Shown: positions 1 through 37,668 of the stretch, one piece after another
Position numbering within the stretch: the first letter of the stretch is position 1
Layout: every line of letters begins with the position of its first letter
Origin: a virus
Length of the DNA stretch: 64,000 nt
IMG/VR virus record: IMGVR_UViG_3300021138_000014
Coordinates: 1 to 64,000 of that record
Reading direction: 5' to 3' (one strand)
Notes under the pieces: model-generated
Told to the model about the DNA's origin: nothing
What the model saw: only the letters and a program-made list of their open reading frames with translations
Database searches by the model: none
Translations under genes and position numbers: made by a program

Positions 1-35
1 GACCTACGCCATAGCATTCGCCAAGGGAGAGAAGA

Positions 36-326
36 ATGTCTGAGATCCAGGGACTCATAGAAGAACGCAACGCACAAGTGCTCGCCATTACGGACGAAAA
101 CCGGGAGAAGGGGGACGACTCGAACCCGATTCTGTACGCTGAGCAGGGACCGAACCGATTCGCACTCATGTCCCTATTCTTCACCGATACGGACGGCGTG
201 CAGATTCAAGAAGATATAGAAGAACGCGAGATAGCCGTAAAATTCTTCACCGACACTGAAGAAATTGAACTAACCGAAGGCGCACTGTATTCATGGGCGC
301 TCGATTTCTACAAGAACAACTACTAG
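36..326 (+). CDS. hypothetical protein
   Basis: ORF with GGGAGAG RBS; acidic; part of a tightly packed + strand series. Confidence 0.7.
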   Translation: MSEIQGLIEERNAQVLAITDENREKGDDSNPILYAEQGPNRFALMSLFFTDTDGVQIQEDIEEREIAVKFFTDTEEIELTEGALYSWALDFYKNNY

Positions 327-336
327 GGAGAATGCA

Positions 337-651
337 ATGACTAATGACAACGTGTTGAGAGAAATGCTTGCGAGCGCCAAGGGGATTGCATGGGACACCT
401 GCCATAAGATTTATGTCCTCATGACTGACGAGCAGGTCGAGAAGATGAGGGAGTATGAGTATGATCCAATTCACACCGACCTGGATCCACAAGAGATGTA
501 CGCCACGGTCATGGATTGGTGGGACAACTCCTGCAGCTTGAGATTCATTCAAGGAGTGGGCAACGCAATTGGTGGGGGTAATGAAGCAGACTTCTACTCC
601 ATTGTCCCACAAGGGGAGAACCTGTTCGACCGGGCTGAGGTAGACGCATGA
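337..651 (+). CDS. hypothetical phage protein
   Basis: GGGAG RBS; IAWDTCHKIY motif; ATGA overlap with next ORF. Confidence 0.75.
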   Translation: MTNDNVLREMLASAKGIAWDTCHKIYVLMTDEQVEKMREYEYDPIHTDLDPQEMYATVMDWWDNSCSLRFIQGVGNAIGGGNEADFYSIVPQGENLFDRAEVDA

Positions 652-740
652 ACGAATACGAGGAGTACGAAAAGGCGCGAGCTGAGGGCAAAGAGTACCT
701 AGAGCTTTTACCGCATGAGACAGACGAAAGCCACGCCTAA
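648..740 (+). CDS. 30-aa hypothetical protein (MNEYEEYEKARAEG...)
   Basis: Read manually; ATGA overlap, GAGG RBS, ends just before terminator. Confidence 0.5.
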   Translation: MNEYEEYEKARAEGKEYLELLPHETDESHA

Positions 741-751
741 AGATTGTCAAG

Positions 752-794
752 TAACCGCTCGTGTGAGATACATCACGCGGGCGGTTATTTTTTT
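752..794 (+). terminator. intrinsic terminator whose upper stem/loop is a CRP-like box
   Basis: TAACCGCTCGTGTGA-GATACA-TCACGCGGGCGGTTA followed by a T tract. Confidence 0.8.
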
Positions 795-823
795 ATAAGG
801 GGAATGCCATTACCCAAAGCCAG

Positions 824-870
824 AATGTTTGTGTTGACCCTCCCACCCCTCATCCCTTCGGGATAGGGTG
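824..870. repeat. 47-bp repeat copy 1 with C(UUCG)G hairpin
   Basis: 44/47 identical to 2264-2310; ATCCC-TTCG-GGAT core. Confidence 0.9.
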
Positions 871-948
871 TGAGAGAGATCACATGTGATTTATCTCACA
901 TTGTGAGGCCGGTCACAGTGAGCTGCGTCACATGAGATCCAGGTCACA
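869..948. promoter_or_regulatory. tandem array of five CRP/GlxR-type boxes (TGTGA-N6-TCACA)
   Basis: Boxes at 869-884, 885-900, 902-917 (perfect), 917-932 and 933-948 (one mismatch each). Confidence 0.85.
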
Positions 949-964
949 CCAGCTCGGGAGAGAG

Positions 965-1031
965 TGTGACTAGTATCACGTGCAGAATGGTAGGAATTGG
1001 AGAGAGAGAGTGAGAGACTTCTCTTACTAGG
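965..1031 (+). promoter_or_regulatory. putative promoter copy 1 (CRP-like box, AATGGTA, -10-like GAGACT, ACTAGG)
   Basis: Same elements and exact spacing as 2584-2650. Confidence 0.6.
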
Positions 1032-1064
1032 TACTCTCCTAGTTATTAGATATGGGGGCAAGAT

Positions 1065-1769
1065 ATGGACATGGCACTGAAGCCTAGTAAGGACAGGAAA
1101 GTTGCTAACTCACTCACACCGTCGGGAGGGGTACGCATTGCGAACTCTTTCGGATTACCTGCAGGATTAAATTATTCATGCCCTAGCGCCACAAGTGTAT
1201 GCTCGAAAGTCTGCTACGCGGGCAAGTTGGAGAAGATATATAAAGGGGTCAAGATTAATCTCACGCATAATTGGGATTTGGTTAAGGACGCCGATATGGA
1301 TCACGTCACTAATCTACTTAACAGCATGATTATTGATTTCATTACTGAATGCGAGCGAAAGGGTTCGGCTAAGTTATTCCGTATCCATTGGGACGGCGAT
1401 TTCTTCTCAGACACCTATATTGGCGCATGGCGTCATGTTATTGAAAGTCATCCCGACGTCCGCTTTTGGGTGTATACCCGCGTGATTCGCGCGACGGTAT
1501 TACTTAAGGGGATTGATAATCTCGCGCTCTATTTCTCCACTGATAAGGATAATTTCGCGCTCGCTAAGATTGCGCTTAAGAATGGCGCACGATTGGCGAT
1601 GTTAGATGAGACTTTCGAAGCAGGACGCGAGCGCCTAGCGTCGATTGGTGAGCGTGGCGCGATGTGTCCTGAACAGCGTGGTCAGATAGATCTAAACGGC
1701 GCGTGCGTCGCGTGCGGGTTATGTATTAAAGGTAAGACTAATATTCTATTTTCAATTACTAAGAAATAA
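1065..1769 (+). CDS. GP88-like protein (Cys-motif, radical-SAM-related)
   Basis: SFGLPAG, CPSATSVCSKVCYA, FRIHWDGDF, FWVYTR, C-terminal CPE..CVACGLC. Confidence 0.75.
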   Translation: MDMALKPSKDRKVANSLTPSGGVRIANSFGLPAGLNYSCPSATSVCSKVCYAGKLEKIYKGVKINLTHNWDLVKDADMDHVTNLLNSMIIDFITECERKGSAKLFRIHWDGDFFSDTYIGAWRHVIESHPDVRFWVYTRVIRATVLLKGIDNLALYFSTDKDNFALAKIALKNGARLAMLDETFEAGRERLASIGERGAMCPEQRGQIDLNGACVACGLCIKGKTNILFSITKK

Positions 1770-1779
1770 GGAGAAGATC

Positions 1780-2064
1780 ATGGGACGTATTTTTGCAGAA
1801 GAATTGGCAAGCGGTATTGGTGGCATTACCTTAGAAAGAGGGGTTGCCATTCATATGGCGGGTAATCTCTACCCTCCTCCTCCTTCTTACATGGTTCCCG
1901 TCGCGATCGAAGCGCTAAATTCGATCTTAATCGAAGATGATTGGGAGAAGGAGATTGATCTTCCCGACGGCGTGGAATGGCGTGGGGAGAAGAAGGTTCC
2001 CGCTCGATTCGTAATCGACGCGTTCCGGTTAGAAGCTTTTCTAGATGGGGAGGATGAAGAATGA
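1780..2064 (+). CDS. hypothetical phage protein
   Basis: AGGAG RBS; HMAGNLYPPPP motif. Confidence 0.75.
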   Translation: MGRIFAEELASGIGGITLERGVAIHMAGNLYPPPPSYMVPVAIEALNSILIEDDWEKEIDLPDGVEWRGEKKVPARFVIDAFRLEAFLDGEDEE

Positions 2065-2183
2065 CCAAGCCTAAGAATGAATTTGAAGAGGCTATGAATA
2101 ACGTACTGATCGAAGGCTTGAAGAGAATTGATAGGTTGACGATCATCCCAGTAGGATTCGACGAGGATCCTCCCAAAGAATAG
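2061..2183 (+). CDS. 40-aa hypothetical protein (MTKPKNEFEEAM...)
   Basis: Read manually; ATGA overlap, GGAGG upstream, ends before terminator. Confidence 0.55.
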   Translation: MTKPKNEFEEAMNNVLIEGLKRIDRLTIIPVGFDEDPPKE

Positions 2184-2211
2184 ATTTCCTTGCCCCCGCT
2201 CGGAAAACGAG

Positions 2212-2243
2212 AACCCTCAGCGCCGATCCGCTGGGGGTTTTTT
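2212..2243 (+). terminator. intrinsic terminator
   Basis: AACCCTCAGCG-CCGATC-CGCTGGGGGTT plus T tract. Confidence 0.8.
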
Positions 2244-2244
2244 A

Positions 2245-2262
2245 TTCGAACACGTGTTCGAA
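2245..2262. promoter_or_regulatory. LexA SOS box (actinobacterial/Gram-positive type)
   Basis: Perfect palindrome TTCGAACACGTGTTCGAA = TCGAAC-N4-GTTCGA. Confidence 0.8.
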
Positions 2263-2263
2263 A

Positions 2264-2310
2264 AATGTTTGTGTTGACCCACCCTCCCCTTATCCCTTCG
2301 GGATAGGGTG
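2264..2310. repeat. 47-bp repeat copy 2 with C(UUCG)G hairpin
   Basis: 44/47 identical to 824-870. Confidence 0.9.
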
Positions 2311-2345
2311 GAGAGACTTGTCAACTCGACACGCCCGGAGCTGCA

Positions 2346-2387
2346 TGTGAGATTCGTCACACTGCGGCCGGTGTGATCCAGGTCACA
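2346..2387. promoter_or_regulatory. two perfect CRP/GlxR-type boxes
   Basis: TGTGA-GATTCG-TCACA 2346-2361; TGTGA-TCCAGG-TCACA 2372-2387. Confidence 0.8.
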
Positions 2388-2388
2388 C

Positions 2389-2404
2389 TGTTTCACGTGA
2401 AACA
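2389..2404. promoter_or_regulatory. parS: parS site (ParB/Spo0J loading site)
   Basis: Exact match to the bacterial consensus TGTTTCACGTGAAACA. Confidence 0.85.
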
Positions 2405-2551
2405 AATTGTCGACAAATCTACAAAATCAATGCCCCTGGAAATGTCGACAAAGCGATAAGGCTACTATGGAGAGAGAGAAGAGAGAGAGCAGTCGCGTAA
2501 CCAGATGAGAGACGCCTTCGGCGATCTCCTATCATGATGAGAGAGTTCAGC

Positions 2552-2567
2552 TGTGATGCAGATCACA
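2552..2567. promoter_or_regulatory. perfect CRP/GlxR-type box
   Basis: TGTGA-TGCAGA-TCACA. Confidence 0.75.
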
Positions 2568-2583
2568 TGACTAAATGGGGGTA

Positions 2584-2650
2584 TGTGACCTATATCACGC
2601 TCTAAATGGTATCTATTCACCTATACATAAATTAGGCTTGCCTCACTAGG
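2584..2650 (+). promoter_or_regulatory. putative promoter copy 2 (CRP-like box, AATGGTA, -10 TAGGCT, ACTAGG)
   Basis: Identical spacing to 965-1031; upstream of AGGAGG RBS and ORF 2685. Confidence 0.65.
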
Positions 2651-2684
2651 GAATCCTCTATCCCTCTCTAGTAGGAGGCATTAA

Positions 2685-3140
2685 ATGACGAATCTATCGG
2701 GCGCAGTTTCCCCTACAAAAGACGTCGTAGAAGTGCAAGGAGTGGAGTATCACGTTACTTCTGCACCTTGCTTGAATTTCGTTGAACATCCCCACATCGT
2801 AGACGGTCAGGGTTGCTATACCTGCCGATCTTCTTCATCCGCATTGGGCGAAACTAACTCAATTGCAGTCGCTCTCGCTAAGGAGGGTATTGAGTGCCAT
2901 GTCGCCCAGACTGGCGGTTTCTGCATGGTGGTATATGTCGTCTCAGAAGATAAGACTCGCGCAATTGGTGCGAACGCTGAGTGCGTTGTATTCGAATCTG
3001 ACTGGCAGGAGGGTGGCGAAGATCAAGAAACACTTCTTGCCTCGACTGACTGGGATGGTGGCGACCTCACACCTGAGCAAGTTGCCGAAATTGTTGAAGT
3101 CTTCAAGTCTAATCTCTACCGTTTGGAGGTCACCAAGTGA
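2685..3140 (+). CDS. hypothetical protein
   Basis: AGGAGG RBS; QTGGFCMV motif. Confidence 0.75.
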   Translation: MTNLSGAVSPTKDVVEVQGVEYHVTSAPCLNFVEHPHIVDGQGCYTCRSSSSALGETNSIAVALAKEGIECHVAQTGGFCMVVYVVSEDKTRAIGANAECVVFESDWQEGGEDQETLLASTDWDGGDLTPEQVAEIVEVFKSNLYRLEVTK

Positions 3141-3580
3141 TCCAATGCAAGAAGTGCCTATCAGAAGTTATCTGGGACGGAATTCAGAACATCTGCCCAA
3201 CCTGTAACGAGACGGATGCAAAGCCAGAGAATCACTACGAGTGGTTTGACAAGAAGGGCAAGAATCATGTCTCTCTTACTGAGATCTTGCTTGCCCTACG
3301 TGCCTCATCGCCCGCCGAATGCGAAGGGGTTGCCTATGGATGGACATCACATCTGGATATCTATTACAAGTTTCCAGAGTCTTTCGGTTATGCCGAAGAT
3401 GAGAAATGGATTGGTTTCGGAGTCGACCAAGAGACTGATATCGGATACACCTACAACGGTGTACATAACGATTTCGTCGGAGACATTCCGAATCTAGAAA
3501 CTGCTGGAGAAATCGCTCAGGAGTTCTGGGCGCAATTGAAGAATCGGATCAATGAATTGGAGACACATAATGCCCGCTAA
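3137..3580 (+). CDS. hypothetical protein with N-terminal zinc ribbon
   Basis: GGAGG RBS, GTGA overlap; CKKC...CPTC. Confidence 0.7.
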   Translation: MIQCKKCLSEVIWDGIQNICPTCNETDAKPENHYEWFDKKGKNHVSLTEILLALRASSPAECEGVAYGWTSHLDIYYKFPESFGYAEDEKWIGFGVDQETDIGYTYNGVHNDFVGDIPNLETAGEIAQEFWAQLKNRINELETHNAR

Positions 3581-3758
3581 ATACACAATCACACTCTCGT
3601 TCTTCGCTGATCGGGGACTCACATCCTCAGAGAAGAAGGATCTTATGGACACGATCATGCTCCAATTGGAAGAACCGTATGTCCAAACCGAGGACGGATT
3701 TTACGAAAGTGCAGAATATTCAACAAGTCAGATTGAAGGAGATATTACAAATGGATAA
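3570..3758 (+). CDS. hypothetical protein
   Basis: Probable start MPAKY after GGAG. Confidence 0.6.
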   Translation: MPAKYTITLSFFADRGLTSSEKKDLMDTIMLQLEEPYVQTEDGFYESAEYSTSQIEGDITNG

Positions 3759-3999
3759 TGAGACAAAAGCTGCGGAAATGTACACATACGACACCGCCGA
3801 TATAGAAAGCATTACCTGCCTGATGTGCAACCACGTAATCAATGACCGCTTCAACATGGAGACGCTCAATTACTACTCACTTAATTGTTTCAAGTGCGAC
3901 GAGGATCTATTCCTCTGGAAGCGCTATGACGGCACTGTATTCATAACCGCCGAAGACGGAGAGAAGAGAATCGATTACAAGGAGGAGATCAATGAATAA
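3751..3999 (+). CDS. zinc-ribbon hypothetical protein
   Basis: Probable start MDNETK after AAGGAG; CLMC...CFKC. Confidence 0.65.
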   Translation: MDNETKAAEMYTYDTADIESITCLMCNHVINDRFNMETLNYYSLNCFKCDEDLFLWKRYDGTVFITAEDGEKRIDYKEEINE

Positions 4000-4258
4000 G
4001 AAGATGTACATCGGGCTGGAGTTACCAGTAGCCACCGCGCCGAAAGTGTTGGCGTTCAATGAAACCTTAAAAAAGGGAGAGGGTTCATATGACTCATGGC
4101 TGGTGCTTGCGGTAAGGGAGAGAACTATTCACCCGTTCGCCGTTTGGTTGGTTGCTGATCGTCCCGAGGGGTTGTACGTTTACTCAGGGACTTATTGCCA
4201 GACGCTTGAAGAGGCTCGCGAGTCCTTCATGTATCGCGGAGGAGTGTTGACCGCATGA
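3992..4258 (+). CDS. hypothetical protein
   Basis: AGGAGG RBS; overlapping neighbours. Confidence 0.7.
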   Translation: MNKKMYIGLELPVATAPKVLAFNETLKKGEGSYDSWLVLAVRERTIHPFAVWLVADRPEGLYVYSGTYCQTLEEARESFMYRGGVLTA

Positions 4259-4413
4259 CTTACGGATGTGGGGCAGAGAGTTGTTTAGTCTGTTATCCGT
4301 ATCAGTATGCCTGTGCGGATTGTGGAACTCGATGGGAGAAACCTATCGAGAATGGCGTCACTCATGAGTGCGATGAGTGCGCTTACATTAATAACAATAA
4401 GGAGATGGCATGA
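4255..4413 (+). CDS. Cys-rich 52-aa protein (MTYGCGAESCLVCYP...)
   Basis: Read manually; ATGA overlaps at both ends; GGAGG RBS. Confidence 0.65.
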   Translation: MTYGCGAESCLVCYPYQYACADCGTRWEKPIENGVTHECDECAYINNNKEMA

Positions 4414-4556
4414 AGCAGTGCATTATTCATGAGGCAAGAGACGTTCGGATCCAAAACCGGGCGGGCAAGTGGTTCGTTCATCACGTGTGTGACAAGTGTG
4501 ACTATCACATGTGCCCGCCGAATTGCGAGATTGCAGCTGAGAGGAGAAAAGCATGA
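4410..4556 (+). CDS. Cys/His-rich 48-aa protein (MKQCIIHE...)
   Basis: Read manually; ATGA overlaps; AAGGAG RBS. Confidence 0.6.
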   Translation: MKQCIIHEARDVRIQNRAGKWFVHHVCDKCDYHMCPPNCEIAAERRKA

Positions 4557-4885
4557 GCATTACAACATATTACGAGTTCACCTACAACGGTGAAGAGATC
4601 TATTACCCATCCCAGATTGTAGACAGCGAACTAGTCCGGTGTTTGGATGTTGAGCAGACTTTTATCTCTAATGAGATGAAGTACTACCAAGTCTTGCAAG
4701 AGGCAGAGACTGCCGTCGAGATCATTACTGAACATGGGATCACTACCCAAGCAATTGGAGAGTGCTGGAAGTGGGCAGAGGTTTGGGCGATGGTGTTCCT
4801 AGCCAGAGGTACAACCATGTACAACGAATATGGAAATAAGATTGACGCAGAGAAACTTGACGTCACAGTAAAGGAGAGAGACTGA
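4553..4885 (+). CDS. hypothetical protein
   Basis: AGGAG RBS; coupled start/stop. Confidence 0.7.
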   Translation: MSITTYYEFTYNGEEIYYPSQIVDSELVRCLDVEQTFISNEMKYYQVLQEAETAVEIITEHGITTQAIGECWKWAEVWAMVFLARGTTMYNEYGNKIDAEKLDVTVKERD

Positions 4886-5100
4886 TGAGTGACCTAGAGA
4901 TTGCATTCCTTAACACAGAGAACAATGGATTGACCGTAGATCAAATGGAAGAGATCACTGACGCCATAGATCTTGCCAACACAAACCGCGGGTTTGAGGA
5001 GGCTTGGGAGGCTATTCGAGTCTTATCACGAGCCTTGGATATAGATCTTTACTTCCCCGCTAGTGACGTTTACCCCAAGCCAAAGGAGATAGAAGTATGA
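4885..5100 (+). CDS. hypothetical protein
   Basis: AAGGAG RBS; TGATG coupling. Confidence 0.7.
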   Translation: MSDLEIAFLNTENNGLTVDQMEEITDAIDLANTNRGFEEAWEAIRVLSRALDIDLYFPASDVYPKPKEIEV

Positions 5101-5480
5101 AGCGCTGGTTACCTGTAGGAATTCGTGTTAGCACTGAATCTGATCGATCAGACAGCCTGATTGGGTTAAACTTTGAAAAATGGCGAATGCATACCCCATT
5201 TGGGTACGAGCTTCATAAAGAAAACATTTATGAACCCTCAATTAACGTAATGTGGCGTAAATACTCTTTGTGTATCGAATTTCGATACATAAAAGAATCA
5301 GAACGTTGGGCGTGGCTCAACTCTGATGAAGATCCAGAGTTATTCAATTACGTATTGAAGAAGGTTTTTGGACCTAAAAAGGGGATTGAGGAAAGCATCG
5401 ACCCTGGAATTGAATATGAATACGAAGAGGAGGAGGAGGAGGAGGAGGAGGAGGAGGAGTCAAATGACCCACTTGAATGA
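5097..5480 (+). CDS. hypothetical protein with poly-Glu tail
   Basis: AAGGAG RBS; ATGA overlap. Confidence 0.65.
   Translation: MKRWLPVGIRVSTESDRSDSLIGLNFEKWRMHTPFGYELHKENIYEPSINVMWRKYSLCIEFRYIKESERWAWLNSDEDPELFNYVLKKVFGPKKGIEESIDPGIEYEYEEEEEEEEEEEESNDPLE
5427..5459. repeat. (GAG)11 perfect microsatellite
   Basis: Direct reading. Confidence 0.95.
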
Positions 5481-5661
5481 AAATACTAAAATGAAACCAG
5501 ATCCCTGCATTATGTGCGGGGCCGAAGCCCGGCGCGTCAGTTTCAAAGCCGAGATCTACGAATACTTTGCCGAGGGCAAATGCTTTACCTGTTACATGAA
5601 ATTCGATACCGTTGCTTGGACACCCAAGCACGCCAAGGGCACCGCTGGTAGCTGGAACTAG
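5464..5661 (+). CDS. zinc-finger hypothetical protein
   Basis: Probable start MTHLNE after the GGAG repeats; CIMC...CFTC. Confidence 0.6.
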   Translation: MTHLNENTKMKPDPCIMCGAEARRVSFKAEIYEYFAEGKCFTCYMKFDTVAWTPKHAKGTAGSWN

Positions 5662-5677
5662 AAAAGAGAGATAGGAT

Positions 5678-5845
5678 ATGACACAGAACGGATGGACGGA
5701 AAACGATGGGTTCTTGTACGCGGATTGCCTAAAGTGCAATGATCGTACGGTACACATTGTGCTTAAACCAAAGGAAGGTTTTCCACCGTACGAGTGTGTG
5801 CAGTGCACATTCAACTGGGAGAGAGTAGAGAGTGAGGGTCGATGA
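5678..5845 (+). CDS. 55-aa zinc-ribbon protein (MTQNGWTENDG...)
   Basis: Read manually; CLKC...CVQC; ATGA overlap with MTase. Confidence 0.6.
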   Translation: MTQNGWTENDGFLYADCLKCNDRTVHIVLKPKEGFPPYECVQCTFNWERVESEGR

Positions 5846-6567
5846 AAGCCGTTTCATTATTTGCTGGTGTAGGTGGGTTTGATCTTGCGCTGCACCGAGC
5901 AGGTGTTGAAGTTGTTGCGTCATGCGAAATTGATAAGCATGCACGCGCTGTATTAGAAAAGCAATTCCCAAACGTTCCACTAATCAACGATGTAAAGGAT
6001 GTGACAGGTGATCAACTTAGAGAACTCGGATTCGAAGGTTCTAACGGAATTATTGTCGGAGGATTTCCATGCCAAGATTTGTCCGTTGCAGGAAAGAGAG
6101 CCGGACTTGCTGGAGCTCGATCTGGACTCTTCTGGGAAATCTGCCGTATCCTCGAAGAAACGCAAACGAAGTGGTTCGTCCTCGAAAATGTCCCTGGATT
6201 GTTGTCATCCAACAACGGAGCAGACATGGGAACCGTTATCCAAGCGTTGGTTGAGCTCGGGTATGGGATCGCCTACAGGATTCTTGACGCTCAGTTCTTC
6301 GGAGTCCCCCAGCGTCGCCGTCGAGTCTTCATTGTTGGATGTCTTGGAGACGACGGGCGATCACCTGCAGAAGTACTTGCTCTCATCGAAGGCATGCGAG
6401 GGCATTCTGAGAAGAGCGACAAATCGCGGAAAAACTCTACCTTCGCAACTCCACTCAGCACTTCAGGCGAGGGCAGAGATGTAGCGAACACGATCTCGGC
6501 TGAGTTGTATCACCGATCAACGATCGTCAATCAGGATATTAATAATGGTCACCTCGTGGTGGGTTAA
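5842..6567 (+). CDS. C5 cytosine DNA methyltransferase, N-terminal polypeptide (motifs I-VIII)
   Basis: SLFAGVGG, GGFPCQDLS, ENVPGL, PQRRRRVFIVG. Confidence 0.92.
   Translation: MKAVSLFAGVGGFDLALHRAGVEVVASCEIDKHARAVLEKQFPNVPLINDVKDVTGDQLRELGFEGSNGIIVGGFPCQDLSVAGKRAGLAGARSGLFWEICRILEETQTKWFVLENVPGLLSSNNGADMGTVIQALVELGYGIAYRILDAQFFGVPQRRRRVFIVGCLGDDGRSPAEVLALIEGMRGHSEKSDKSRKNSTFATPLSTSGEGRDVANTISAELYHRSTIVNQDINNGHLVVG
6008..6484 (+). CDS. nested out-of-frame MTase beta-type polypeptide (M.EcoHK31I beta-like)
   Basis: GTG start with AAGGA RBS inside the MTase gene, +1 frame; C-terminal SSLLDVLE...KYLLSSKACEGILRRATNRGKTLP. Confidence 0.7.
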   Translation: MINLENSDSKVLTELLSEDFHAKICPLQEREPDLLELDLDSSGKSAVSSKKRKRSGSSSKMSLDCCHPTTEQTWEPLSKRWLSSGMGSPTGFLTLSSSESPSVAVESSLLDVLETTGDHLQKYLLSSKACEGILRRATNRGKTLPSQLHSALQARAEM

Positions 6568-7285
6568 AAGTCGGAGAGCGCAAAGCGTTCACGACTTTGA
6601 GACATGGGTAGCGGAAGGAGTAGTGCCGACATTGAATGCATTCGAGAATAACGGAGACACACGAGCAACAGTTCTTGTGTTTTACAGCGGTACGTTTGGT
6701 GAAGTAAGAATTCAGGGAAAGGTGATTAATACGTTGCCAGCAAAAATGGGTACAGGCGGTAATAACACACCGATGGCTGTCTATCCGATTCAGGATGGTC
6801 GCGAGATGGAGAAGAAACAAAACGGTCTTGGTTTAGGAGAAGATTCTGCACCTGCTTACACAGTTGATACAACTGGTGGGCAAGCGGTAGCGTATCCAAT
6901 CCAAGGAACGATGGTTGGTCGTAGTGATACGGCTGGCCCTAATGGAAAAGGTTATGGGGATGTTCAAGATCCCATGTTCACTATGGATACTGTTGGAGGT
7001 AATGCTGTGGCAATGGTTGGTAACTTTGAGCTTTACGACTTTCCAAAGGAAGAAGTATCACCAAGCCTCAACGCCCGGCGGGCAAAGGACACGATGGTAT
7101 ATGAAGATGTGCCGTCAATGGTTCGCCGCCTAACTCCTATGGAGTGCGAACGCCTTCAAGGATTCCCAGATAACTGGACAGAAATCGGATCCGATTCTCA
7201 ACGTTACAAGCAAATGGGTAATGCTGTTGCTGTGCCTGTTGTTGAGTGGATCATTAATCGGTTAGTGGAGGTCAATAACAGATGA
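6545..7285 (+). CDS. C5 cytosine DNA methyltransferase, C-terminal polypeptide (TRD-like repeats, motifs IX-X)
   Basis: RRLTPMECERLQGFPD, RYKQMGNAVAVPVV; AGGA RBS. Confidence 0.88.
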   Translation: MVTSWWVKSRRAQSVHDFETWVAEGVVPTLNAFENNGDTRATVLVFYSGTFGEVRIQGKVINTLPAKMGTGGNNTPMAVYPIQDGREMEKKQNGLGLGEDSAPAYTVDTTGGQAVAYPIQGTMVGRSDTAGPNGKGYGDVQDPMFTMDTVGGNAVAMVGNFELYDFPKEEVSPSLNARRAKDTMVYEDVPSMVRRLTPMECERLQGFPDNWTEIGSDSQRYKQMGNAVAVPVVEWIINRLVEVNNR

Positions 7286-7431
7286 CACTAGCAACATTTA
7301 TTTACTGGACGATCCTGTTGGGAACGTACTACATCTTTGCAATTGGAATTTACATAATCTTGCGATTAACTGGTATTACCAAGTTATTCCCTCAACCAGT
7401 ACAGGCGGTGCTACATGATCTCTTCTTCTAA
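7282..7431 (+). CDS. 49-aa membrane peptide (MTLATFIYWTILLG...)
   Basis: Read manually; GGAGG RBS, ATGA overlap, hydrophobic. Confidence 0.6.
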   Translation: MTLATFIYWTILLGTYYIFAIGIYIILRLTGITKLFPQPVQAVLHDLFF

Positions 7432-7771
7432 ATACGATTACGCAGTTCATGATCTATTGGGTAAACCGATCACTATTGCTGAATGGGTCAAACTTACCAA
7501 AAACCCATGGAGCAAGGAAAACTACGTGGGACCTAATCGCGTTCTCACTATATGGACAGGTGTGGATGCCCCAGATTATGATCCAAACAATGAGCGCATG
7601 ACTAAGACCAGCCGGGTACCTGAGATCCCCATGATCTATGTAACTTACGCGTGGAATGCTGACCTTCGGATCACCCATAGCAAGCGCTACAAGAGTATGC
7701 ATGATGCCGAACTTGGACACGCACGAGTGCTCGAACTATTGAGCAAGTCGCTAGCACTAGTGACAGTCTGA
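7415..7771 (+). CDS. hypothetical protein
   Basis: ORF; VLTIWTGVD...RYKS..DAELGH pattern. Confidence 0.65.
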   Translation: MISSSKYDYAVHDLLGKPITIAEWVKLTKNPWSKENYVGPNRVLTIWTGVDAPDYDPNNERMTKTSRVPEIPMIYVTYAWNADLRITHSKRYKSMHDAELGHARVLELLSKSLALVTV

Positions 7772-7786
7772 TAAACTCCGACCATG
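7772..7786 (+). promoter_or_regulatory. leaderless promoter (-10 TAAACT-N6-ATG)
   Basis: TAAACT CCGACC ATG, no SD. Confidence 0.55.
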
Positions 7787-8179
7787 GCTAATCTAAATAC
7801 TAATCATCTAAACATCACATTCAAGTTGCCAGCACGTGAGGATAACGACAACCGTCGCCTCTTTACCTTTAACGTGATCCGCAACGATGAGCGCAATGGT
7901 AAATGGCTCGCTGCTGTTATCGCTGCTGACGTTGACAATCGTCCTGAAACTATTGGTGCATCTTCATGGTCTAACGCAGCTCCAGCAAAGCGTTGGTGTG
8001 AGAATATTGTAGGACGTAAAATCGACTGGGTATCCAGCGACGACGGTAAGTTCGCCACCGCTAGCGTAGAACTTGACTACGAGCATGCCCCACTTATGGA
8101 AAACGTATCAATCCCAGAATCAGAAGGAACTGCGTACCAAGAAAATGTAATCGAAGACGCAGAAATAGTGGAGGAATAA
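7784..8179 (+). CDS. hypothetical protein (paralog of 8179-8394)
   Basis: Shared SW..A..AK.....VG.K..WV motif. Confidence 0.75.
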   Translation: MANLNTNHLNITFKLPAREDNDNRRLFTFNVIRNDERNGKWLAAVIAADVDNRPETIGASSWSNAAPAKRWCENIVGRKIDWVSSDDGKFATASVELDYEHAPLMENVSIPESEGTAYQENVIEDAEIVEE

Positions 8180-8394
8180 TGGCTAAGAAAATATACACAT
8201 TCAAACTCGATAAGAACCCACTTGATGGTGGAGGCTTCATGCTTCATATCCATGTGGATGGCGTAGAAAACACAACAGCATGGAAGTCTGCACCAAAGGC
8301 TAAGAAGCACGCGGCGGCCGCTGTTGGTAAGAAATTCGTTCGTTGGGTAGAAGTAACTGAGGGCGAGAAGTTCACCGCTGAGGGTTCTTTCTAG
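8179..8394 (+). CDS. hypothetical protein (paralog of 7784-8179)
   Basis: GGAGG RBS, TAATG coupling. Confidence 0.75.
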   Translation: MAKKIYTFKLDKNPLDGGGFMLHIHVDGVENTTAWKSAPKAKKHAAAAVGKKFVRWVEVTEGEKFTAEGSF

Positions 8395-8400
8395 TACTTA

Positions 8401-9243
8401 ATGAACATGCAAGATTGGTTTCTTTATGGAACCAAAAGAAAATTTATTAGCACCGAGGTCGATTACAGTCTCTGTAATATGGGGATTAGATTAGTCGAAG
8501 ACCCCGGTGCTAATTCTTTTTACACCCTGGATCCAAGTGATTCTACGTATACAGCTATTCGTGGATCACGTAAGTGGGCATCTTATGGTGCAGAGCGGGG
8601 CTGGTTACTTCAAGTCGGCTGCATGAAACATGAGTTACTTGAATGCCATGGACGAGTGTTGCAAAGCGAAAGCGAAATCGTACCAATGGATTTGGATTAT
8701 GTATCTGATGTGTTCCTTGCCGAGTATGAACGTGAAGCTGAGGAACTTGGTATTAAAACTGGTGGTTGGTCTAATTCAGTAAACAAGAATGAGGTTGGGT
8801 ATCTTGCCTCACACATAGCTGATGCTCAACGCCTGATCGATGAAGCATGGTCTATGCGTGTGGCTCATACGTTTATTGATATTGGTTGCGGACTTGGGTT
8901 GCCTTTAGCGCTAGCACAAGAGGATGGTCGTTATGCTGCGATTGTTGGTGTGGAACATGATATTAATATTCTCAGCAATTGCGTGGATAATGCTCCGTAT
9001 GCTGAGTTACTTCGTGAAGATGCGAGCACATTTAAATTGCGTGGCAATTACCCAAAGCATATATATTTGTATAGCCCGTTTAGCAATCAAGTATTTATTA
9101 ATTTTATGGACAACAATGTGAATCATATAAAGTCTACTGGTTCCATTATTTTGTACAACAACAGTTACGCCGTCAATCATTTGATGCCATTGTACGGTTT
9201 CAATTCCCGTCATATCGATGGGATATCTAGCATTTATTATTGA
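8401..9243 (+). CDS. class I SAM-dependent methyltransferase-domain protein
   Basis: FIDIGCGLG, IVGVEHD, EDAST, YLYSPF in C-terminal half. Confidence 0.7.
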   Translation: MNMQDWFLYGTKRKFISTEVDYSLCNMGIRLVEDPGANSFYTLDPSDSTYTAIRGSRKWASYGAERGWLLQVGCMKHELLECHGRVLQSESEIVPMDLDYVSDVFLAEYEREAEELGIKTGGWSNSVNKNEVGYLASHIADAQRLIDEAWSMRVAHTFIDIGCGLGLPLALAQEDGRYAAIVGVEHDINILSNCVDNAPYAELLREDASTFKLRGNYPKHIYLYSPFSNQVFINFMDNNVNHIKSTGSIILYNNSYAVNHLMPLYGFNSRHIDGISSIYY

Positions 9244-9356
9244 TCGTTGTCTACCTGCGAAACTTCACCACGACAGATGAAACAAAAGTTCTGGTTAGAC
9301 TCATACTCAGCCTCAACCTCAATAGCATCTTTACAAATAAAGCAGTGTGTTGTCAT
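9237..9356 (-). CDS. 39-aa zinc-finger protein (MTTHCFICKD...FCFICRG)
   Basis: Read manually; two CFIC motifs; ATGA overlap with oxygenase stop. Confidence 0.6.
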   Translation of the reverse strand: MTTHCFICKDAIEVEAEYESNQNFCFICRGEVSQVDNDQ

Positions 9357-9943
9357 TTTGCGCTCCTTGAATAGTAGTCCCGAGACTTATCAGTAGTAAA
9401 GCATAGATTAAGTAAAAACTTTTCGCCCTTAGTAACTTTGCGAGCGCCATGGTTATACGCGTAGTTCTTGGGTGGAAACATCACTATGGATCCGCGCTTG
9501 TTCTTTTGCTCTAGCCCCAACTCTGGAAAGTAAAGCTCTCCGCCCTCAAAGTCGTCGTTGAAGTAGGCGACAATTACCAACTCATCTGAAACATGGTTAG
9601 CGGTGACTATGTCTGAATGTGCTTCTAGATCCGACCCGGTAAGGGAGTGGGTCGCATAGATCTCATGAAGGTACAGTCCAGTTGTATAGGGGGCAACCAG
9701 TTTTACTACGTCGTCTATGGCGTCAGAAAATAGTAGGCTTTTAGGGGAGTTATAAATAAACCTCAACCCGTTTTTAGTTTTGAAATCAAATAGTTCTTCT
9801 GCTTGACCATGCTTGAACCAACGAACGAATAGCTCGCACAGTTCTGGTGGTACAACGTTATCTACGGTAACAACACGATTGACCCCATCCCAATTTGAGA
9901 CGGGGTCAACCCATTGTTGATAACTGTATTCGATGATTACTAT
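9353..9943 (-). CDS. 2OG-Fe(II) oxygenase (prolyl-4-hydroxylase-like); start uncertain
   Basis: HSD...YFNDDFEGGELYF...NHGARKV..GEK; frame is open upstream of the TTG at 9766 as far as the nrdJ stop. Confidence 0.75.
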   Translation of the reverse strand: MVIIEYSYQQWVDPVSNWDGVNRVVTVDNVVPPELCELFVRWFKHGQAEELFDFKTKNGLRFIYNSPKSLLFSDAIDDVVKLVAPYTTGLYLHEIYATHSLTGSDLEAHSDIVTANHVSDELVIVAYFNDDFEGGELYFPELGLEQKNKRGSIVMFPPKNYAYNHGARKVTKGEKFLLNLCFTTDKSRDYYSRSAK

Positions 9944-15807: not shown

Positions 15808-16358
15808 GTGTAAAGTTTTTTCGCTTGGTTTGATTTCATCATGTTAAAGCTCTTTACTGGGCAGAAATCGCACAAATAAAATGAAGGTAGTTCTGAGGTT
15901 GATAATCCAGCCTCTCGACGTTCTTCTTTCATCACTTCAATCTTGATTAACTTTGGACCTGACTTATAGTCTGGGCAAGCGCCTTCTGGACGTAAGTGTG
16001 TTTGGAAACACTTCATAGCATCGGCAGAGTAGTTATCTTTAGCGGCGTAAACTTCTGGACCAAGACCCTCTGATTGTGTGAACAATTCTGCGGACATCCT
16101 CCTCTTACCACTGTCGCTGTTCCATACGGCAAAGTCAACGTCTACAAGCAAACCCATGTGAGGTTGCGGACGTTGGTGTGCTTCAAGTGCGCGCTTAAGG
16201 AAAAGGTTTTGTTCTTGATGATTGATTGGCCAACGTTCATCAACTGGGATCTCTTCAAATGAACGGCAAGTTTTACATGCCAAAATAAGGACCTTATGTT
16301 CGTCCTTTTTAGTTGCTAATTGGGACAGGTCAAACGCTTTATAGGGATCGATAGCCAT
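15804..16358 (-). CDS. Cys-rich hypothetical protein
   Basis: CKTC, C..H..P...C, LCDFCP. Confidence 0.75.
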   Translation of the reverse strand: MAIDPYKAFDLSQLATKKDEHKVLILACKTCRSFEEIPVDERWPINHQEQNLFLKRALEAHQRPQPHMGLLVDVDFAVWNSDSGKRRMSAELFTQSEGLGPEVYAAKDNYSADAMKCFQTHLRPEGACPDYKSGPKLIKIEVMKEERREAGLSTSELPSFYLCDFCPVKSFNMMKSNQAKKLYT

Positions 16359-16391
16359 GCCCAGATCCTACCCTATGTGAGGTAGGTCACA
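16356..16391 (-). promoter_or_regulatory. leaderless promoter (TAGGAT-N6-ATG) overlapped by a perfect CRP-type box
   Basis: TGTGA-GGTAGG-TCACA at 16376-16391; -10 at 16365-16370. Confidence 0.65.
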
Positions 16392-23478: not shown

Positions 23479-23789
23479 CTTTTCCTAACCCACTCTTCCA
23501 ATGTCTTATCGTTCTTCTTGGCTTTACGCTTAAGAGCATTGCGTTCACGATGGCTGAGTCCTCCCCAGATACCGTGTTGCTCGTTGTTGCCTTCGGCGTA
23601 CAACATGCACTCAATTCGTACGGGACATTCTGCCTTACCGTCTTTGCCAAAGCAAATCGCTTTAGCCTTGTCGGCAATCAGTTTGTATTTGGCTTTATCG
23701 CGTGGGGGAAACCAAAGTTCTGTGTCCATAGATCGACACTTGGCTTTGTGGCGCCAACCTTCTATTCCTTCGTCTTCGTACAAGAACAC
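23475..23789 (-). CDS. whiB: WhiB-family transcription factor
   Basis: W...AKC....LWFP, AKAIC, CPVRIEC, GIWGG.S.RER. Confidence 0.9.
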   Translation of the reverse strand: MFLYEDEGIEGWRHKAKCRSMDTELWFPPRDKAKYKLIADKAKAICFGKDGKAECPVRIECMLYAEGNNEQHGIWGGLSHRERNALKRKAKKNDKTLEEWVRKR

Positions 23790-33579: not shown

Positions 33580-34109
33580 TAGTTTTGCGCCGCCAAAGTA
33601 AAAGACGTAATTTTTTCTTTGAGGTCTTCAATGGAACCATCGTTAACAATAATCTGGCTAAACCCATGATTATCCAAAGCCGATTCTGATATGTGACTGT
33701 TGGTAGCAATAACTTCGGGGCGTTCTACTCTCCAAAGTTGACCCTCAAATTGATCAATCATGTTTGCTTCGTTAAGGAACCGGACATCACTAATAACGTA
33801 ATTCTTTCCGTATTCCATTTTGCGTAAAGCCGTTTCAATCCAAATCTCGGAATCAACAACCTCTCGCATGGAAACTCCAAGGGACTGAAGTAAGCGTCGA
33901 ACTTCTGGGTGCGCCTTTGCTAACTCCCAACCGTTTTCTTCAACGTAGTCGTAAATACGAGTATTATCAATAACAAAAGGATTGATTTGTAAAAGTAATT
34001 CTCTAATAGGATCAGCAAACGCTATGCGTTCAAACGCATAATCTTCTACAAGGATATTTGCTACTGTATCTTTTCCGGAACGTGCATAACCAGATAATCC
34101 AATAATCAT
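33579..34109 (-). CDS. deoxynucleoside monophosphate kinase
   Basis: IIGLSGYARSGKDT, FADPIR, R.LLQ.LG, ISDVRF.NE, HISE. Confidence 0.9.
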   Translation of the reverse strand: MIIGLSGYARSGKDTVANILVEDYAFERIAFADPIRELLLQINPFVIDNTRIYDYVEENGWELAKAHPEVRRLLQSLGVSMREVVDSEIWIETALRKMEYGKNYVISDVRFLNEANMIDQFEGQLWRVERPEVIATNSHISESALDNHGFSQIIVNDGSIEDLKEKITSFTLAAQN

Positions 34110-35032
34110 AATAGTGCTCTTCTCCCGTGTAGTGAATGCTTAGCGTTTGCTAAACCTATCTCAATCTCTTCCTTGCTCATACCACCTACGTCTTTCTGAT
34201 CAGTGTGGCGGTAGTTAAAAAACCAACATTCAAAATTAAACTCTTTAGACTTCTTCAGCATTTCCTCAGACGAGGCTTTACCAGCGTCGTCGTTGTCTAA
34301 AGCAAAAATAATCTTGCCTGCCCCACGAATAAGGTTTAATTGATCAATAGAAATAATTGAGCCGTAGGTGGACACGCCCCCGTGCACACCTACGGACATC
34401 AACCTGGCCGCATCGAGTGGGGACTCGACAACTACCATCTGATCAAACTGTTGAACGTTCTTGTAACCAAAAAGAGCTTTGCTTTTATGGATACCTGCGG
34501 GAAAATTTTTAAAGTAACGATTAAAGACCCCCTTCTCTTGCCAACCCCACAACTTATTAGTATGCGGGTCGCGTATAGGAAGGATCCATGACTCTTTCTG
34601 ATTGTCGTAAAGGATCTCGTAAAAAGTTGTTGCGGAGGCAGTTAAGCCTCGTGACTTCCGAAGTTCTAGGGGTACGTCAACAAATGCTGCAAGGTTTGCC
34701 TCAGTCAAAGAAAAATATTCTTCTTTGGGCTTTGGCTTAGGTTTTAACGCTGCTTCTAATCGCTTGCCTAATGTGGATGTCACCCAATCGTCTGATTGCT
34801 CTATCGGTGTTCCATTGAGGTAAGCGATTAGAAAGTTAAGTCCGCCTTTAAAGCCACATGAAAAACAAATATGTGCTCCAGTATCGGCGTTGATCCACCA
34901 TGAGGGATTACGATCTATATGACCTGTACGACCCAAGTGACCGGGGCAATAGCCATTGACCTCAGACCCTCTGGTATTGGTAGTTTCAATATTAAGGGTG
35001 TCAAGGATGCGGATTAGTTCGTCGGTGGTCAA
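34106..35032 (-). CDS. DNA primase (Zn finger + TOPRIM)
   Basis: CP.H...CFSCG, VVESPLD, ALDNDDAG, KDVG. Confidence 0.88.
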   Translation of the reverse strand: MTTDELIRILDTLNIETTNTRGSEVNGYCPGHLGRTGHIDRNPSWWINADTGAHICFSCGFKGGLNFLIAYLNGTPIEQSDDWVTSTLGKRLEAALKPKPKPKEEYFSLTEANLAAFVDVPLELRKSRGLTASATTFYEILYDNQKESWILPIRDPHTNKLWGWQEKGVFNRYFKNFPAGIHKSKALFGYKNVQQFDQMVVVESPLDAARLMSVGVHGGVSTYGSIISIDQLNLIRGAGKIIFALDNDDAGKASSEEMLKKSKEFNFECWFFNYRHTDQKDVGGMSKEEIEIGLANAKHSLHGRRALL

Positions 35033-36264
35033 ATGTCGTCCTCTTCAATAACCAACTCACGGAACGTTGCGTTCGCCCAGTCCCAACGGAGGTCAACCTC
35101 CCCAGGTCCTGAGTTACGGCTTGCCACAATAGAAAGTTTGCGGGTGGTATCTGCCCATGTATCGTCTACTTCAAGGGCAAAGACAACGTCGGCGTCTTGG
35201 AAAAACGATGAAGAGTAACCAATTGAGTTAGCGGTAACGCGACCGTTCTCTTTCTTCTTCTCTAGCGCCTGAGTAGTCAAAATAATCGGAACTTTATACT
35301 TTTGAGCAAGCAATTTAAACCCACGAGTCAAGGCAGTTAATGCACGTGGAGTGTCACGTTCTCCGCTTATTTCGTCTGTCATCAAGTAAACACCGTCAAT
35401 GACAACAATGTCTGGTCGGTGGATTTGCATCTTTGCAACTACCCCGGACAAGGTTGTGCCAGAAGCAGAACCCACCAACCAGAACCCGTTGTGAAAGCGA
35501 GACGCTGTGTCATAGGTTCGCTTTAATCGCGCTTCGTCAGGAGCGTTAAGATCACCCGTAAGTAAACGAGATTGAGAAACACGAGCTGCAATAGCGTCAT
35601 ATCGATCGGCCTGCTCGTTGTTATTCATTTCAAAAGAATAAAACATAGGAACCATTTCAGTAGTTCTATGGATGTTATATGCCATCTGCATAGCCAAGGT
35701 TGACTTACCTGTTTTAGGTGTAGCAGTAATAACAATCAACTGACCGGGTTGTAGACCAAGAGTCGCCTTATCAATTGTAGGAAAACCTGTTGGAAGACCT
35801 AGAAGCCCGCCGGGATTCTTCTTTCGATCTAAGTAACGTTGCCAACGAGCCTCGCCAGTCTTTGTAATATCTACGTCATCGGTTTTACTTAGTCCATCAA
35901 GTTCCAACTTGATAAGGGAATTCTGCATTGCGTTAAGGGCGTTTGCATAATCTTTACCTTCAATACTGCTAACGATCTCTCCAGCGGCTGAAGCAATGAC
36001 GTTTTCGCGTCGACGTTGTAATAGGGTGTCCAAAAGATAGTGAATGGAGTCTTCGCCCGGTACGGGGGTATAAGTAGGAAAGTTAGTATTAATTACTTCG
36101 AGGCTTGGTGATTCACCATATGTAGAAAAGTGTTGCTTAACAAAAATCCAAATCTTCTTGTCGGTCTCATCGTTAAACCAACTAGTTCCTACACCGCGTT
36201 CAAACAGCGTTGTTAGGTCGCGATCAATAATCGCTTTACTGAGTAATCTGCTTTCAATATTCAT
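35029..36264 (-). CDS. dnaB: DnaB-like replicative helicase
   Basis: TGFPTID..T.GLQPGQL, PKTGKS, SFEM, VIDGVYLM, QDADVV, SRN. Confidence 0.9.
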   Translation of the reverse strand: MNIESRLLSKAIIDRDLTTLFERGVGTSWFNDETDKKIWIFVKQHFSTYGESPSLEVINTNFPTYTPVPGEDSIHYLLDTLLQRRRENVIASAAGEIVSSIEGKDYANALNAMQNSLIKLELDGLSKTDDVDITKTGEARWQRYLDRKKNPGGLLGLPTGFPTIDKATLGLQPGQLIVITATPKTGKSTLAMQMAYNIHRTTEMVPMFYSFEMNNNEQADRYDAIAARVSQSRLLTGDLNAPDEARLKRTYDTASRFHNGFWLVGSASGTTLSGVVAKMQIHRPDIVVIDGVYLMTDEISGERDTPRALTALTRGFKLLAQKYKVPIILTTQALEKKKENGRVTANSIGYSSSFFQDADVVFALEVDDTWADTTRKLSIVASRNSGPGEVDLRWDWANATFRELVIEEDDI

Positions 36265-36677: not shown

Positions 36678-36991
36678 TAGAACACCTCTATTTTTCCAAA
36701 TTTAATAATGAAGTCCCTAAACGCTTCGTCAGAGTCCTCTGCTTTTTGTGCATCTTCTGGAGTTGTGCGCGTAGAAATCTCGTGAGGATAAGTTCCTCCG
36801 TGTGAATCTATCCTACTCTGAACAAAACGGGTGTGCTTACATGTCTTTCTACCGTTGTAACCTGAGCATGTACAGGTTAAAGCACCGCCGGGTTTAATAC
36901 AAACCTCAAAGATTCCAGGGCCAGGATTACCTGTTGGACTTAAAAAGATCTGTAACAGGCGTATGCCCTCTTCCACAGGTACTCCCCTCAT
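36677..36991 (-). CDS. SWIM zinc-finger protein
   Basis: CTC.......CKH. Confidence 0.7.
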   Translation of the reverse strand: MRGVPVEEGIRLLQIFLSPTGNPGPGIFEVCIKPGGALTCTCSGYNGRKTCKHTRFVQSRIDSHGGTYPHEISTRTTPEDAQKAEDSDEAFRDFIIKFGKIEVF

Positions 36992-37668
36992 CGCGCTCGT
37001 AGATCTCCTTGCGTAGATTTTACCTGAATATTGACAAACGCTTCTTGTGCAAAGCTAGCCAGTGCTGAATTATATTTCACCCACTCAGCCGTTGGAAGAT
37101 TTGAAGTAATAATTGTTGGAAGACAGTTTGAGTATCTAGAACGAAGAACCTCATCTATGATGGAACGTTGCCACCCAGATGCAGATTGAAATTCTTTTCC
37201 GAGGTCATCAATAACAAGAACTTTAATGTTTCTAGACTCTGTTTTTGACTCACCCATAATGCTTTCCCATAGGGCTTCTTTAGTACCCTCAACGTAGTCG
37301 CTCATCAAATACCCGCGAAGGTTTACTAACTTAACGTAAGTAGTAAAAAACACTGGTTGGGTAGCATTAAACGGGAATACATCAAGGCTAACGGTACGCA
37401 TAAGATCTTGAACAAGGGCGGCCGCTACGGTCGTCTTTCCTTGACCGGGCGCTCCAAAAAGCGCAAGCCCTTTACCCGCAAGATCGGTGCCCATAACATC
37501 AATAACTTTCCCTGACTTAACAAGATCCATCCATGTCAAAATGTCATCCATGTCGTTGGGAGAAATCTCGGTGCAGTCGCTTAGTTCTCTGCCAATGTAC
37601 TTTGGAGGAATCTGAGAAGACTGTACCCATGATTGTCTACGAAACTTTAGATCGTCAAGGTTATACAT
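36988..37668 (-). CDS. DnaC/IstB-like AAA+ helicase loader
   Basis: GAPGQGKT, LVIDDLGKE, R.RY....PTIITSN. Confidence 0.85.
   Translation of the reverse strand: MYNLDDLKFRRQSWVQSSQIPPKYIGRELSDCTEISPNDMDDILTWMDLVKSGKVIDVMGTDLAGKGLALFGAPGQGKTTVAAALVQDLMRTVSLDVFPFNATQPVFFTTYVKLVNLRGYLMSDYVEGTKEALWESIMGESKTESRNIKVLVIDDLGKEFQSASGWQRSIIDEVLRSRYSNCLPTIITSNLPTAEWVKYNSALASFAQEAFVNIQVKSTQGDLRAR

Follow-up and report, generated by a model that had tools for sequence, protein, structure and literature searches.

The region between positions 749 and 1769 of the phage DNA comprises an intrinsic terminator, which closes an upstream operon of small genes, a 47-bp element, an array of five TGTGA-N6-TCACA boxes at 869-948 (starts at 869, 885, 902, 917 and 933) followed by a sixth box, a putative promoter with a leader hairpin, and a gene for a GP88-family protein; a second island of the same layout stands in front of another early-type gene (Table 1). 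The window, by which we mean the whole stretch of 64,000 nucleotides that was analysed, is the first part of a viral record of 82,374 bp estimated to be 86% complete, and a motif scan of the remaining 18 kb added only one weak box. The phage has a GC content of 45% and the gene set of a freshwater myovirus, with tail sheath and baseplate, DNA polymerase, RNR and a DpdA-like transglycosylase, and it is contained in many freshwater metagenomes. Among RNA data sets, none was listed as containing window positions 1-8000. A megablast search with window positions 1-6000 found no match among GenBank phages, the distant relatives are Streptomyces and Bacillus myophages, and no tRNA was found in a tRNA search of the phage DNA. 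Since the phage encodes WhiB, which is a marker of actinobacterial phages, its host is taken to be an actinobacterium. The plus strand carries genes at 36-9396 while nearly all others lie on the minus strand; being small and mostly without an assigned family, the plus-strand genes fit an early-type block, and this 9-kb block holds two promoter islands only. One of its genes, ORF 1780-2064, encodes an acidic product (about 20 D/E against 8 K/R) whose homologues sit inside the box-rich regions of their phages, and the product may act on a host protein or be a DNA mimic.

Table 1. Features of the window referred to in the text, with positions as window coordinates; -10 hexamers and transcript starts are putative.
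Feature	Position	Strand	Detail
Intrinsic terminator closing upstream small-gene operon	749-800	+	18-pair stem, then T run
Box in terminator stem	762-777		One mismatch
47-bp island head element	824-870	+	Second copy at 2264-2310
Array box 1	869-884		Perfect; spacer GAGAGA
Array box 2	885-900		Perfect; spacer TTTATC
Array box 3	902-917		Perfect; spacer GGCCGG
Array box 4	917-932		One mismatch, first base A
Array box 5	933-948		One mismatch, third base A; spacer TCCAGG
Promoter-proximal box	965-980		One mismatch, last base G; 16 bp after array
Putative weak -10 hexamer GAGACT	1014-1019	+	Aligns with TAGGCT at 2633-2638
Putative transcript start A1026 and leader hairpin	1026-1043	+	ACTAGG/CCTAGT
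GP88-family protein gene	1065-1769	+	234 aa; PF17338, phrog_1392
Acidic early-type protein gene, ORF 1780-2064	1780-2064		94 aa; no family; homologues in 12/15 box-bearing phage records
Island 2 distal boxes	2346-2361, 2372-2387		Both perfect; match the array by alignment
Island 2 proximal boxes	2552-2567, 2584-2599		Perfect; one mismatch
Putative -10 hexamer TAGGCT, island 2	2633-2638	+	Before 151-aa gene at 2685-3140
Leader hairpin at putative start A2645, island 2	2645-2672	+	
Lone perfect box	16376-16391	-	In front of minus-strand gene with ATG at 16358
WhiB gene	23532-23756	-	PF02467, 65.1 bits, E 5.7e-19
Initiator-like ORF	37661-38614	-	317 aa; no family; directly before the three genes below
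DnaC-like loader gene	36988-37668		
DnaB helicase gene	35029-36264		
Primase gene	34106-35032		

The five boxes of the array are offset by 16, 17, 15 and 16 bp (mean period 16 bp), neighbouring boxes abutting, leaving a gap of 1 bp or having one base in common, and all five spacers are distinct. The earlier note had described five boxes back to back at about 16 bp, which we confirmed for positions, half-sites and differing spacers, but its coordinates leave out the boxes at 762, 965, 2346, 2372, 2552, 2584 and 16376. The window has seven perfect boxes and altogether 13 sites with at most one mismatch, as against a mean of 2.6 and a maximum of 7 in 100 dinucleotide-preserving shuffles, none of which reached 13 (0/100); 12 of the 13 fall in three short non-coding places. 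Boxes 2372 and 933 have the spacer TCCAGG in common. The array was unchanged in lake metagenome contigs of 2012 and 2016, and the few variants listed for the two islands in such contigs all fall outside the half-sites. Contig breaks in or beside the array, seen in two of the four runs, were rejected as evidence, being an assembly effect of repeats or strain variants. It may be noted that the one-mismatch box at 762-777 forms the top of the terminator hairpin at 749-790, which may be a coincidence or a dual use. The lone box at 16376 abuts TAGGGT/TAGGAT -10-like hexamers that lie 6-11 nt before the ATG at 16358, so that the transcript there is probably leaderless or has a very short leader, and since this box overlies the core promoter, repression would be expected there if Crp binds.

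Both islands follow one plan, namely a terminator, the 47-bp head element, a GA run, boxes, two boxes 32 bp apart and a -10-like hexamer, after which come six bases ending in CTCTT or CCTC and then an A, the first base of the leader hairpin; the downstream gene begins 39-40 nt beyond this A, the putative start, in both islands. Only island 2 carries an insert, which contains a parS-like palindrome, TGTCGACA palindromes and a long GA tract. The head element is made up of TGTTTGTGTTGACCC, a C-rich run and an inverted repeat that has a TTCG cap and TAGGGT at its end, and its 18-bp core was found in 14 IMG/VR stretches (L132-L145) with a GA run after each; one 96-kb phage has five copies. When read on the minus strand, the C-rich run gives four G3-4 tracts, a G-quadruplex-type motif. 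No pair of -10 and -35 hexamers in the head element could be fitted to a sigma-70-type spacing.

Since a scan of the islands with the sigma-70 consensus found no promoter, we placed the promoters by comparison with the relatives. These keep the order of a -10 hexamer, 6-7 nt ending in CTCTT and then an A, together with the hairpin, and changes in the leader stem are compensated in L132 (ACTAG/CTAGT) and L140 (ACTGGG/CTCAGT). The comparison supports, without proving, that transcripts start at A1026 and A2645, and the leader hairpin is probably a 5'-terminal stabilising stem-loop of early-type mRNAs. Relative to the putative +1 at A1026 the centres of the array boxes lie at -149.5, -133.5, -116.5, -101.5 and -85.5 and that of box 965 at -53.5, while the proximal boxes of island 2 are centred at -85.5 and -53.5 from A2645. 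The spacing of 32 bp, the distance to the aligned -10 and that to the start codon are the same for these boxes in the two islands, and the last array box coincides exactly in position with a proximal site of the sister promoter (-85.5 from the putative start). In the putative promoters of L019 and L021, read by eye, the proximal box stands at about the same position as box 965. Boxes 885 and 917 are off-phase with the sites that the putative start would place at -53.5 and -85.5.

Several other elements accompany the boxes in the islands. A LexA-type box, TCGAAC-N4-GTTCGA (2245-2262), heads island 2, and a perfect parS-type palindrome, TGTTTCACGTGAAACA (2389-2404), lies one base after a CRP-type box; the central GTTTCACGTGAAAC of this palindrome is kept in the same place in L020 (about 2415-2430), L133 and L144. 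The motif GACACGCC (2328-2335) recurs in either orientation near boxes or head elements of L022-L098, L132, L136, L137 and L140, and includes GACAC, which we take to be the core reported for WhiA in Streptomyces. Palindromes of the TTGTCGACAA type occur at 2407-2416 and 2443-2450 and are conserved in L019-L021 as AAATGTCGACAAATC, after which come TTAGGCTACTG and a long GA tract; taken together, the palindromes and the GA tract may serve as an internal promoter of a GA-rich RNA. The islands have polypurine (GA)n tracts at 999-1017 and 2469-2489, and in relatives (L019, L021, L142, L143) such tracts reach 30-60 nt.

The set of relatives consisted of 80 viral loci fetched through GP88 homologues (490 kb). 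It contained 223 perfect boxes, or 0.455 per kb, as compared to about 0.001 per kb by chance, an excess of about 400-fold. In most of these loci the box is found upstream of TGTC(A/G)G-N10-TANNNT promoters, which the published PafBC motif, tGTCgg-N10-tA-N3-T, fits (PMC8635444). The gap from box to -10 peaks at 34, 44, 54, 64, 75 and 86 nt in the relatives, and the phasing persists when they are collapsed to 52 promoter groups (Rayleigh R 0.62, period 10-10.5 bp); such dependence on the face of the helix is as expected of an activator that touches RNA polymerase. The phage itself gave two PafBC-type promoters as against 5.4 expected, which is not above chance. The relative G011, a complete genome of 112 kb, has 11 perfect boxes, all of them within a single region of about 10 kb that spans the record ends. 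In the closest relatives (L019, L020, L021 and others) the head element has 0, 1 or 3 abutting boxes behind it; the five seen here are the largest array in that position, and the box totals in G002 and G001 are 10 and 14. Among boxes that are close neighbours, a spacing of 16-17 bp is favoured even in loci not selected for it. Taken together, the comparative evidence points to ordinary promoter control.

In cells such arrangements are very rare. Abutting perfect pairs were found in 18 IMG/VR stretches, and a scan of 596 Gb of cellular genomes, from 185,579 species' genomes, returned only 15 loci, which belong to Chloroflexota, Acidobacteriota, Rhodococcus and a few other lineages, with none in Gammaproteobacteria. 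Five small actinobacterial genomes had no perfect box and barely any enrichment of one-mismatch boxes, while a 4.5-Mb Rhodococcus genome had 13 perfect ones; lacking perfect boxes, the small genomes give no evident sign of a strong Crp regulon with the exact consensus. A conserved palindrome made of two abutting boxes, with the core TGTGA-cacccaTCACATGTGAtgggtg-TCACA, occurs in Rhodococcus genomes and in an Actinomycetes MAG (L119 7303-7334, L122 2504-2535, L128 7549-7580 and L121 945-976). It is perfect over 32 bp in three of these four loci and has a solute-binding-protein gene on one side and pilus-like genes on the other; in Rhodococcus these neighbouring genes gave no lead. The literature that we searched contained no description of such arrays in phages.

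The phage box is equal to the GlxR consensus of Corynebacterium glutamicum, TGTGA-N6-TCACA (PMC7999487), and the motif of M. tuberculosis CRP is also CRP-like (PMC4117774). We located the mismatches in 201 one-mismatch sites of the phage and its relatives, and they fell at position 5 in 95 sites, position 1 in 66, G2 in 23, G4 in 12 and T3 in 5. In CAP, R180 and R185 read G2 and G4, and E181 reads the base paired with G4 (PMC10187061); G2 and G4, the positions that CRP-type proteins read through Arg/Glu/Arg-or-Lys residues of the recognition helix, are among the least variable in our sites. The claim that the array reflects selection on the half-site sequence and not recent duplication was thus borne out, as the spacers differ and the mismatches in the relatives avoid the GTG core. 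The boxes are predicted protein-binding sites of CRP type, and the data support a CRP/GlxR-type protein as the most economical binder.

The same data bear on a fold in RNA, or cruciforms in DNA, as the cause of the palindromes. RNA of 862-985 gives a fold of -46.8 kcal/mol, better than that of shuffled sequence (z -3.15), and the element in front of the array has at its end TAGGGT, a possible -10 hexamer, but repeated inverted half-sites are expected to yield a low free energy by themselves. Hundreds of sites have the same half-site sequence but varying spacers, pairing is broken in 163 of the 201 one-mismatch sites, and of 247 double mismatches 9 are compensatory, the rate expected by chance, most two-mismatch sites probably being background. 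The orthologous arrays of L019 and L021 show differences that are not compensated, as well as an insertion of 1 nt between boxes, and no Rfam family matched. Compensatory changes were therefore not in excess, which speaks against RNA pairing as the cause of the palindromes (the outcome that the earlier note had named as contrary to its proposal), and we regard a functional fold or cruciform as exceedingly improbable.

As regards the identity of the binder, we infer that it is the Crp/GlxR protein of the actinobacterial host, and we hold this to be probable. Of 401 genomes sampled from the class to which Rhodococcus belongs, 379 had a Crp orthologue, a tally that rests partly on genomes flagged as unpublished (G023, G031, G040, G048, G052, G059, G279, G320 and G389), and the Crp recognition helix SRETVNKAL is identical in five actinobacterial genomes of 1.0-1.5 Mb. 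The islands also contain motifs of other host factors, namely the LexA-type box and parS, and such motifs are found with CRP boxes in the unrelated phage G001 and at the bacterial locus L127 as well. WhiB was encoded by 13 of 26 box-bearing viral contigs (11/15 and 2/11), and six WhiB-positive contigs belong to the 18 that were found only by the double-box DNA pattern. Models of HTH_Crp_2 and HTH_3 gave no hit in the phage record, which is 86% complete, the 25 of 35 Pfam families that were listed for the 74 phage ORFs included none of HTH type, and no Crp-type HTH above cut-off was detected in 15 box-bearing phage records, six of them at least 90% complete. Weak HTH_Crp_2 matches in G001, G003 and G006 stayed below cut-off, and those in G001 and G006 look like N-terminal wHTH domains of replication-initiator-like proteins. 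The CRP-type binder proposed from the array thus held up, with WhiB indicating an actinobacterial host and a Crp-type HTH not found in the phage, while the link of the array to cAMP, raised in the same proposal, is an assumption.

The alternative to a host binder is that the boxes are operators of a phage-encoded dimeric protein with a CRP-like specificity, shared or convergent, which as an early or middle regulator would time the early cassettes. The distribution of the boxes would suit it, since they are confined to the early-type block here and to one end region of about 10 kb in G011, the pattern of a temporal class of phage genes, and the phages carry perfect sites at a far higher density than actinobacterial genomes do. 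Most small early ORFs of the phage have no family assignment, such a regulator could be too divergent for Pfam or BLASTP, and, as the record is 86% complete, it could lie in the missing part. Against this, the Crp-type HTH and HTH_3 models were without match, and box-bearing G000, G001, G002 and G011 have no protein in common at BLASTP E 1e-3. Two candidates were set aside as binder. ORF 1780-2064, the only widely shared small early protein, is strongly acidic and absent from G001-G003, which have the largest arrays. ORF 37661-38614, whose L103 homologue has a weak N-terminal wHTH match and which is likely to be the replication initiator, has homologues in only two of the 15 box-bearing records, those of the closest relatives. 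The motif and the mismatches that it tolerates, moreover, match the CRP read-out exactly. We consider a phage-encoded binder unlikely.

With host Crp/GlxR as the probable binder, we put at roughly 55% the reading that the boxes are sites for this protein which form the control region of an early-type promoter, the array being its upstream region. The five boxes would be consensus-strength sites for a dimeric regulator of CRP type, most likely the Crp/GlxR of the actinobacterial host, and the array with box 965 would be the upstream control region for the promoter of the GP88-family gene at 1065. This promoter, with its atypical -10 (GAGACT), is probably aided by Crp at about -53.5 and -85.5 on one helix face, and the sister promoter in island 2 would have the same proximal Crp arrangement. 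The four further boxes would raise the occupancy of the regulator locally; every second box, at steps of about 32 bp, shares the helix face of the proximal sites, and the ones in between lie on the opposite face. As the first box comes directly after the TAGGGT end of the head element, the array may also block transcription from upstream. The earlier note had placed neighbouring boxes on opposite faces of the helix, and this stands, yet a period of 16 bp also sorts the boxes into two interleaved registers with steps of about 32 bp, 869/902/933/965 and 885/917, so that alternate sites share a face.

The number and packing of the boxes set limits on this promoter reading. RNA polymerase has only two alpha C-terminal domains, so that six sites are more than direct activation can use. 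The CAP footprint exceeds 22 bp. As CAP contacts DNA outside its core motif too (PMC10187061), sites 16 bp apart may not be filled together. These points leave some weight for the view that host Crp is bound but that the array is a high-avidity trap titrating the regulator, or a wrapped or zig-zag scaffold, and not a device of promoter control: many Crp dimers loaded on alternating faces would wrap or stiffen the DNA before the promoter or, as a decoy, drain Crp after replication. The surplus of sites over promoter use (six here, and the totals of G002 and G001) agrees with it, as do the consensus quality of the sites, compared with the absence of any perfect site from the five small actinobacterial genomes, and the rarity of abutting perfect pairs in cells. 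So does the stacking of LexA-type boxes beside CRP boxes, several GAAC-N4-GTTC boxes being interleaved with CRP-type boxes in the unrelated phage G001 (6500-6960) and in the bacterial contig L127 (about 7200-7260). However, the box of the relatives is a single site at helically phased promoter distances, the array stops exactly where the sister promoter has a proximal site, and the 0, 1 or 3 boxes behind the head element in relatives imply a freely varying array size, at odds with a conserved device. A trap or scaffold, and likewise the loading of many dimers that it entails, appears to us rather improbable.

A further reading is an iteron-type origin bound by the product of ORF 37661-38614, or a packaging or partition site. 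Five tightly packed dyad repeats in a long non-coding island with a parS-like palindrome and GA tracts could be read in this way, and the phage does have an initiator-like protein encoded before a DnaC-like loader, DnaB and primase. But homologues of this protein accompany the boxes in so few records, the boxes of the relatives are scattered one per promoter and phased to the -10, the perfect box at 16376 overlaps a core promoter, and an AT-rich unwinding stretch was not found beside the array. We therefore think an origin or packaging site very improbable, and both a replication-origin role and an RNA role are disfavoured.

What is new here is the abutting five-box array, the conserved head element before it and the promoter context that is not of PafBC type. 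If host Crp drives, and in places blocks, the first promoters of the phage, infection would be wired to a global host regulator in abundant lake phages, and in uncultivated phages the box would serve as a simple sequence marker for the early gene class and for an actinobacterial host range. The abutting array offers a natural test of how many CRP-type dimers fit at a 16-bp period, and also of stacks as activating scaffolds, insulators or decoys; were the decoy reading true, replicated phage DNA would drain the few Crp molecules of the host from weaker chromosomal sites and thereby reprogram its metabolism.

Among known systems, the closest likeness is to the actinobacterial Crp/GlxR operators, those of C. 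glutamicum GlxR and M. tuberculosis CRP (Rv3676), which have the identical 16-bp palindrome (PMC7999487) and belong to the same phylum as the host; the GTG core is the most constrained part in both these operators and the phage boxes (PMC10187061). For M. tuberculosis CRP, sites upstream of the start are associated with activation and sites near the start with repression, and in its ChIP-seq 14 of 191 sites had more than one motif (PMC4117774). Unlike those operators, the boxes described here are predicted sites that lie in a phage, are at or near the perfect consensus, and abut as five at 16 bp. A phage control region in which several dyad sites of 16-19 bp stand side by side is likewise found in lambda, at OR1-3 and in the iterons of the origin. 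Lambda ori has four dyad-symmetric iterons bound by O protein. The lambda sites have spacers between them, whereas the boxes here abut, no cognate phage repressor or initiator was found to co-occur with them, and those of the relatives are spread over many promoters.

In E. coli class I and tandem (class III) CRP promoters, for example of lac type, the activator site lies upstream on one face, as it does in the relatives (centres about 10.3 bp apart), and the tandem-site promoters resemble both islands in having two sites, here 32 bp apart and predicted at -53.5 and -85.5. The classical CRP site positions are -61.5, -71.5, -82.5 and -92.5, and -53.5, given the putative start, is not a classical class I position in E. 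coli. The phage promoters differ from those of E. coli in these offset positions, which depend on the putative start, in having up to six sites and not one or two, and in that both the RNA polymerase and the activating surfaces are actinobacterial. Finally, the lake actinophage relatives with PafBC-type promoters have the same box, habitat and host phylum, and this phage is set apart from them by the want of PafBC-type promoters above chance, by having two promoter islands only, and by an abutting array placed behind the head element.
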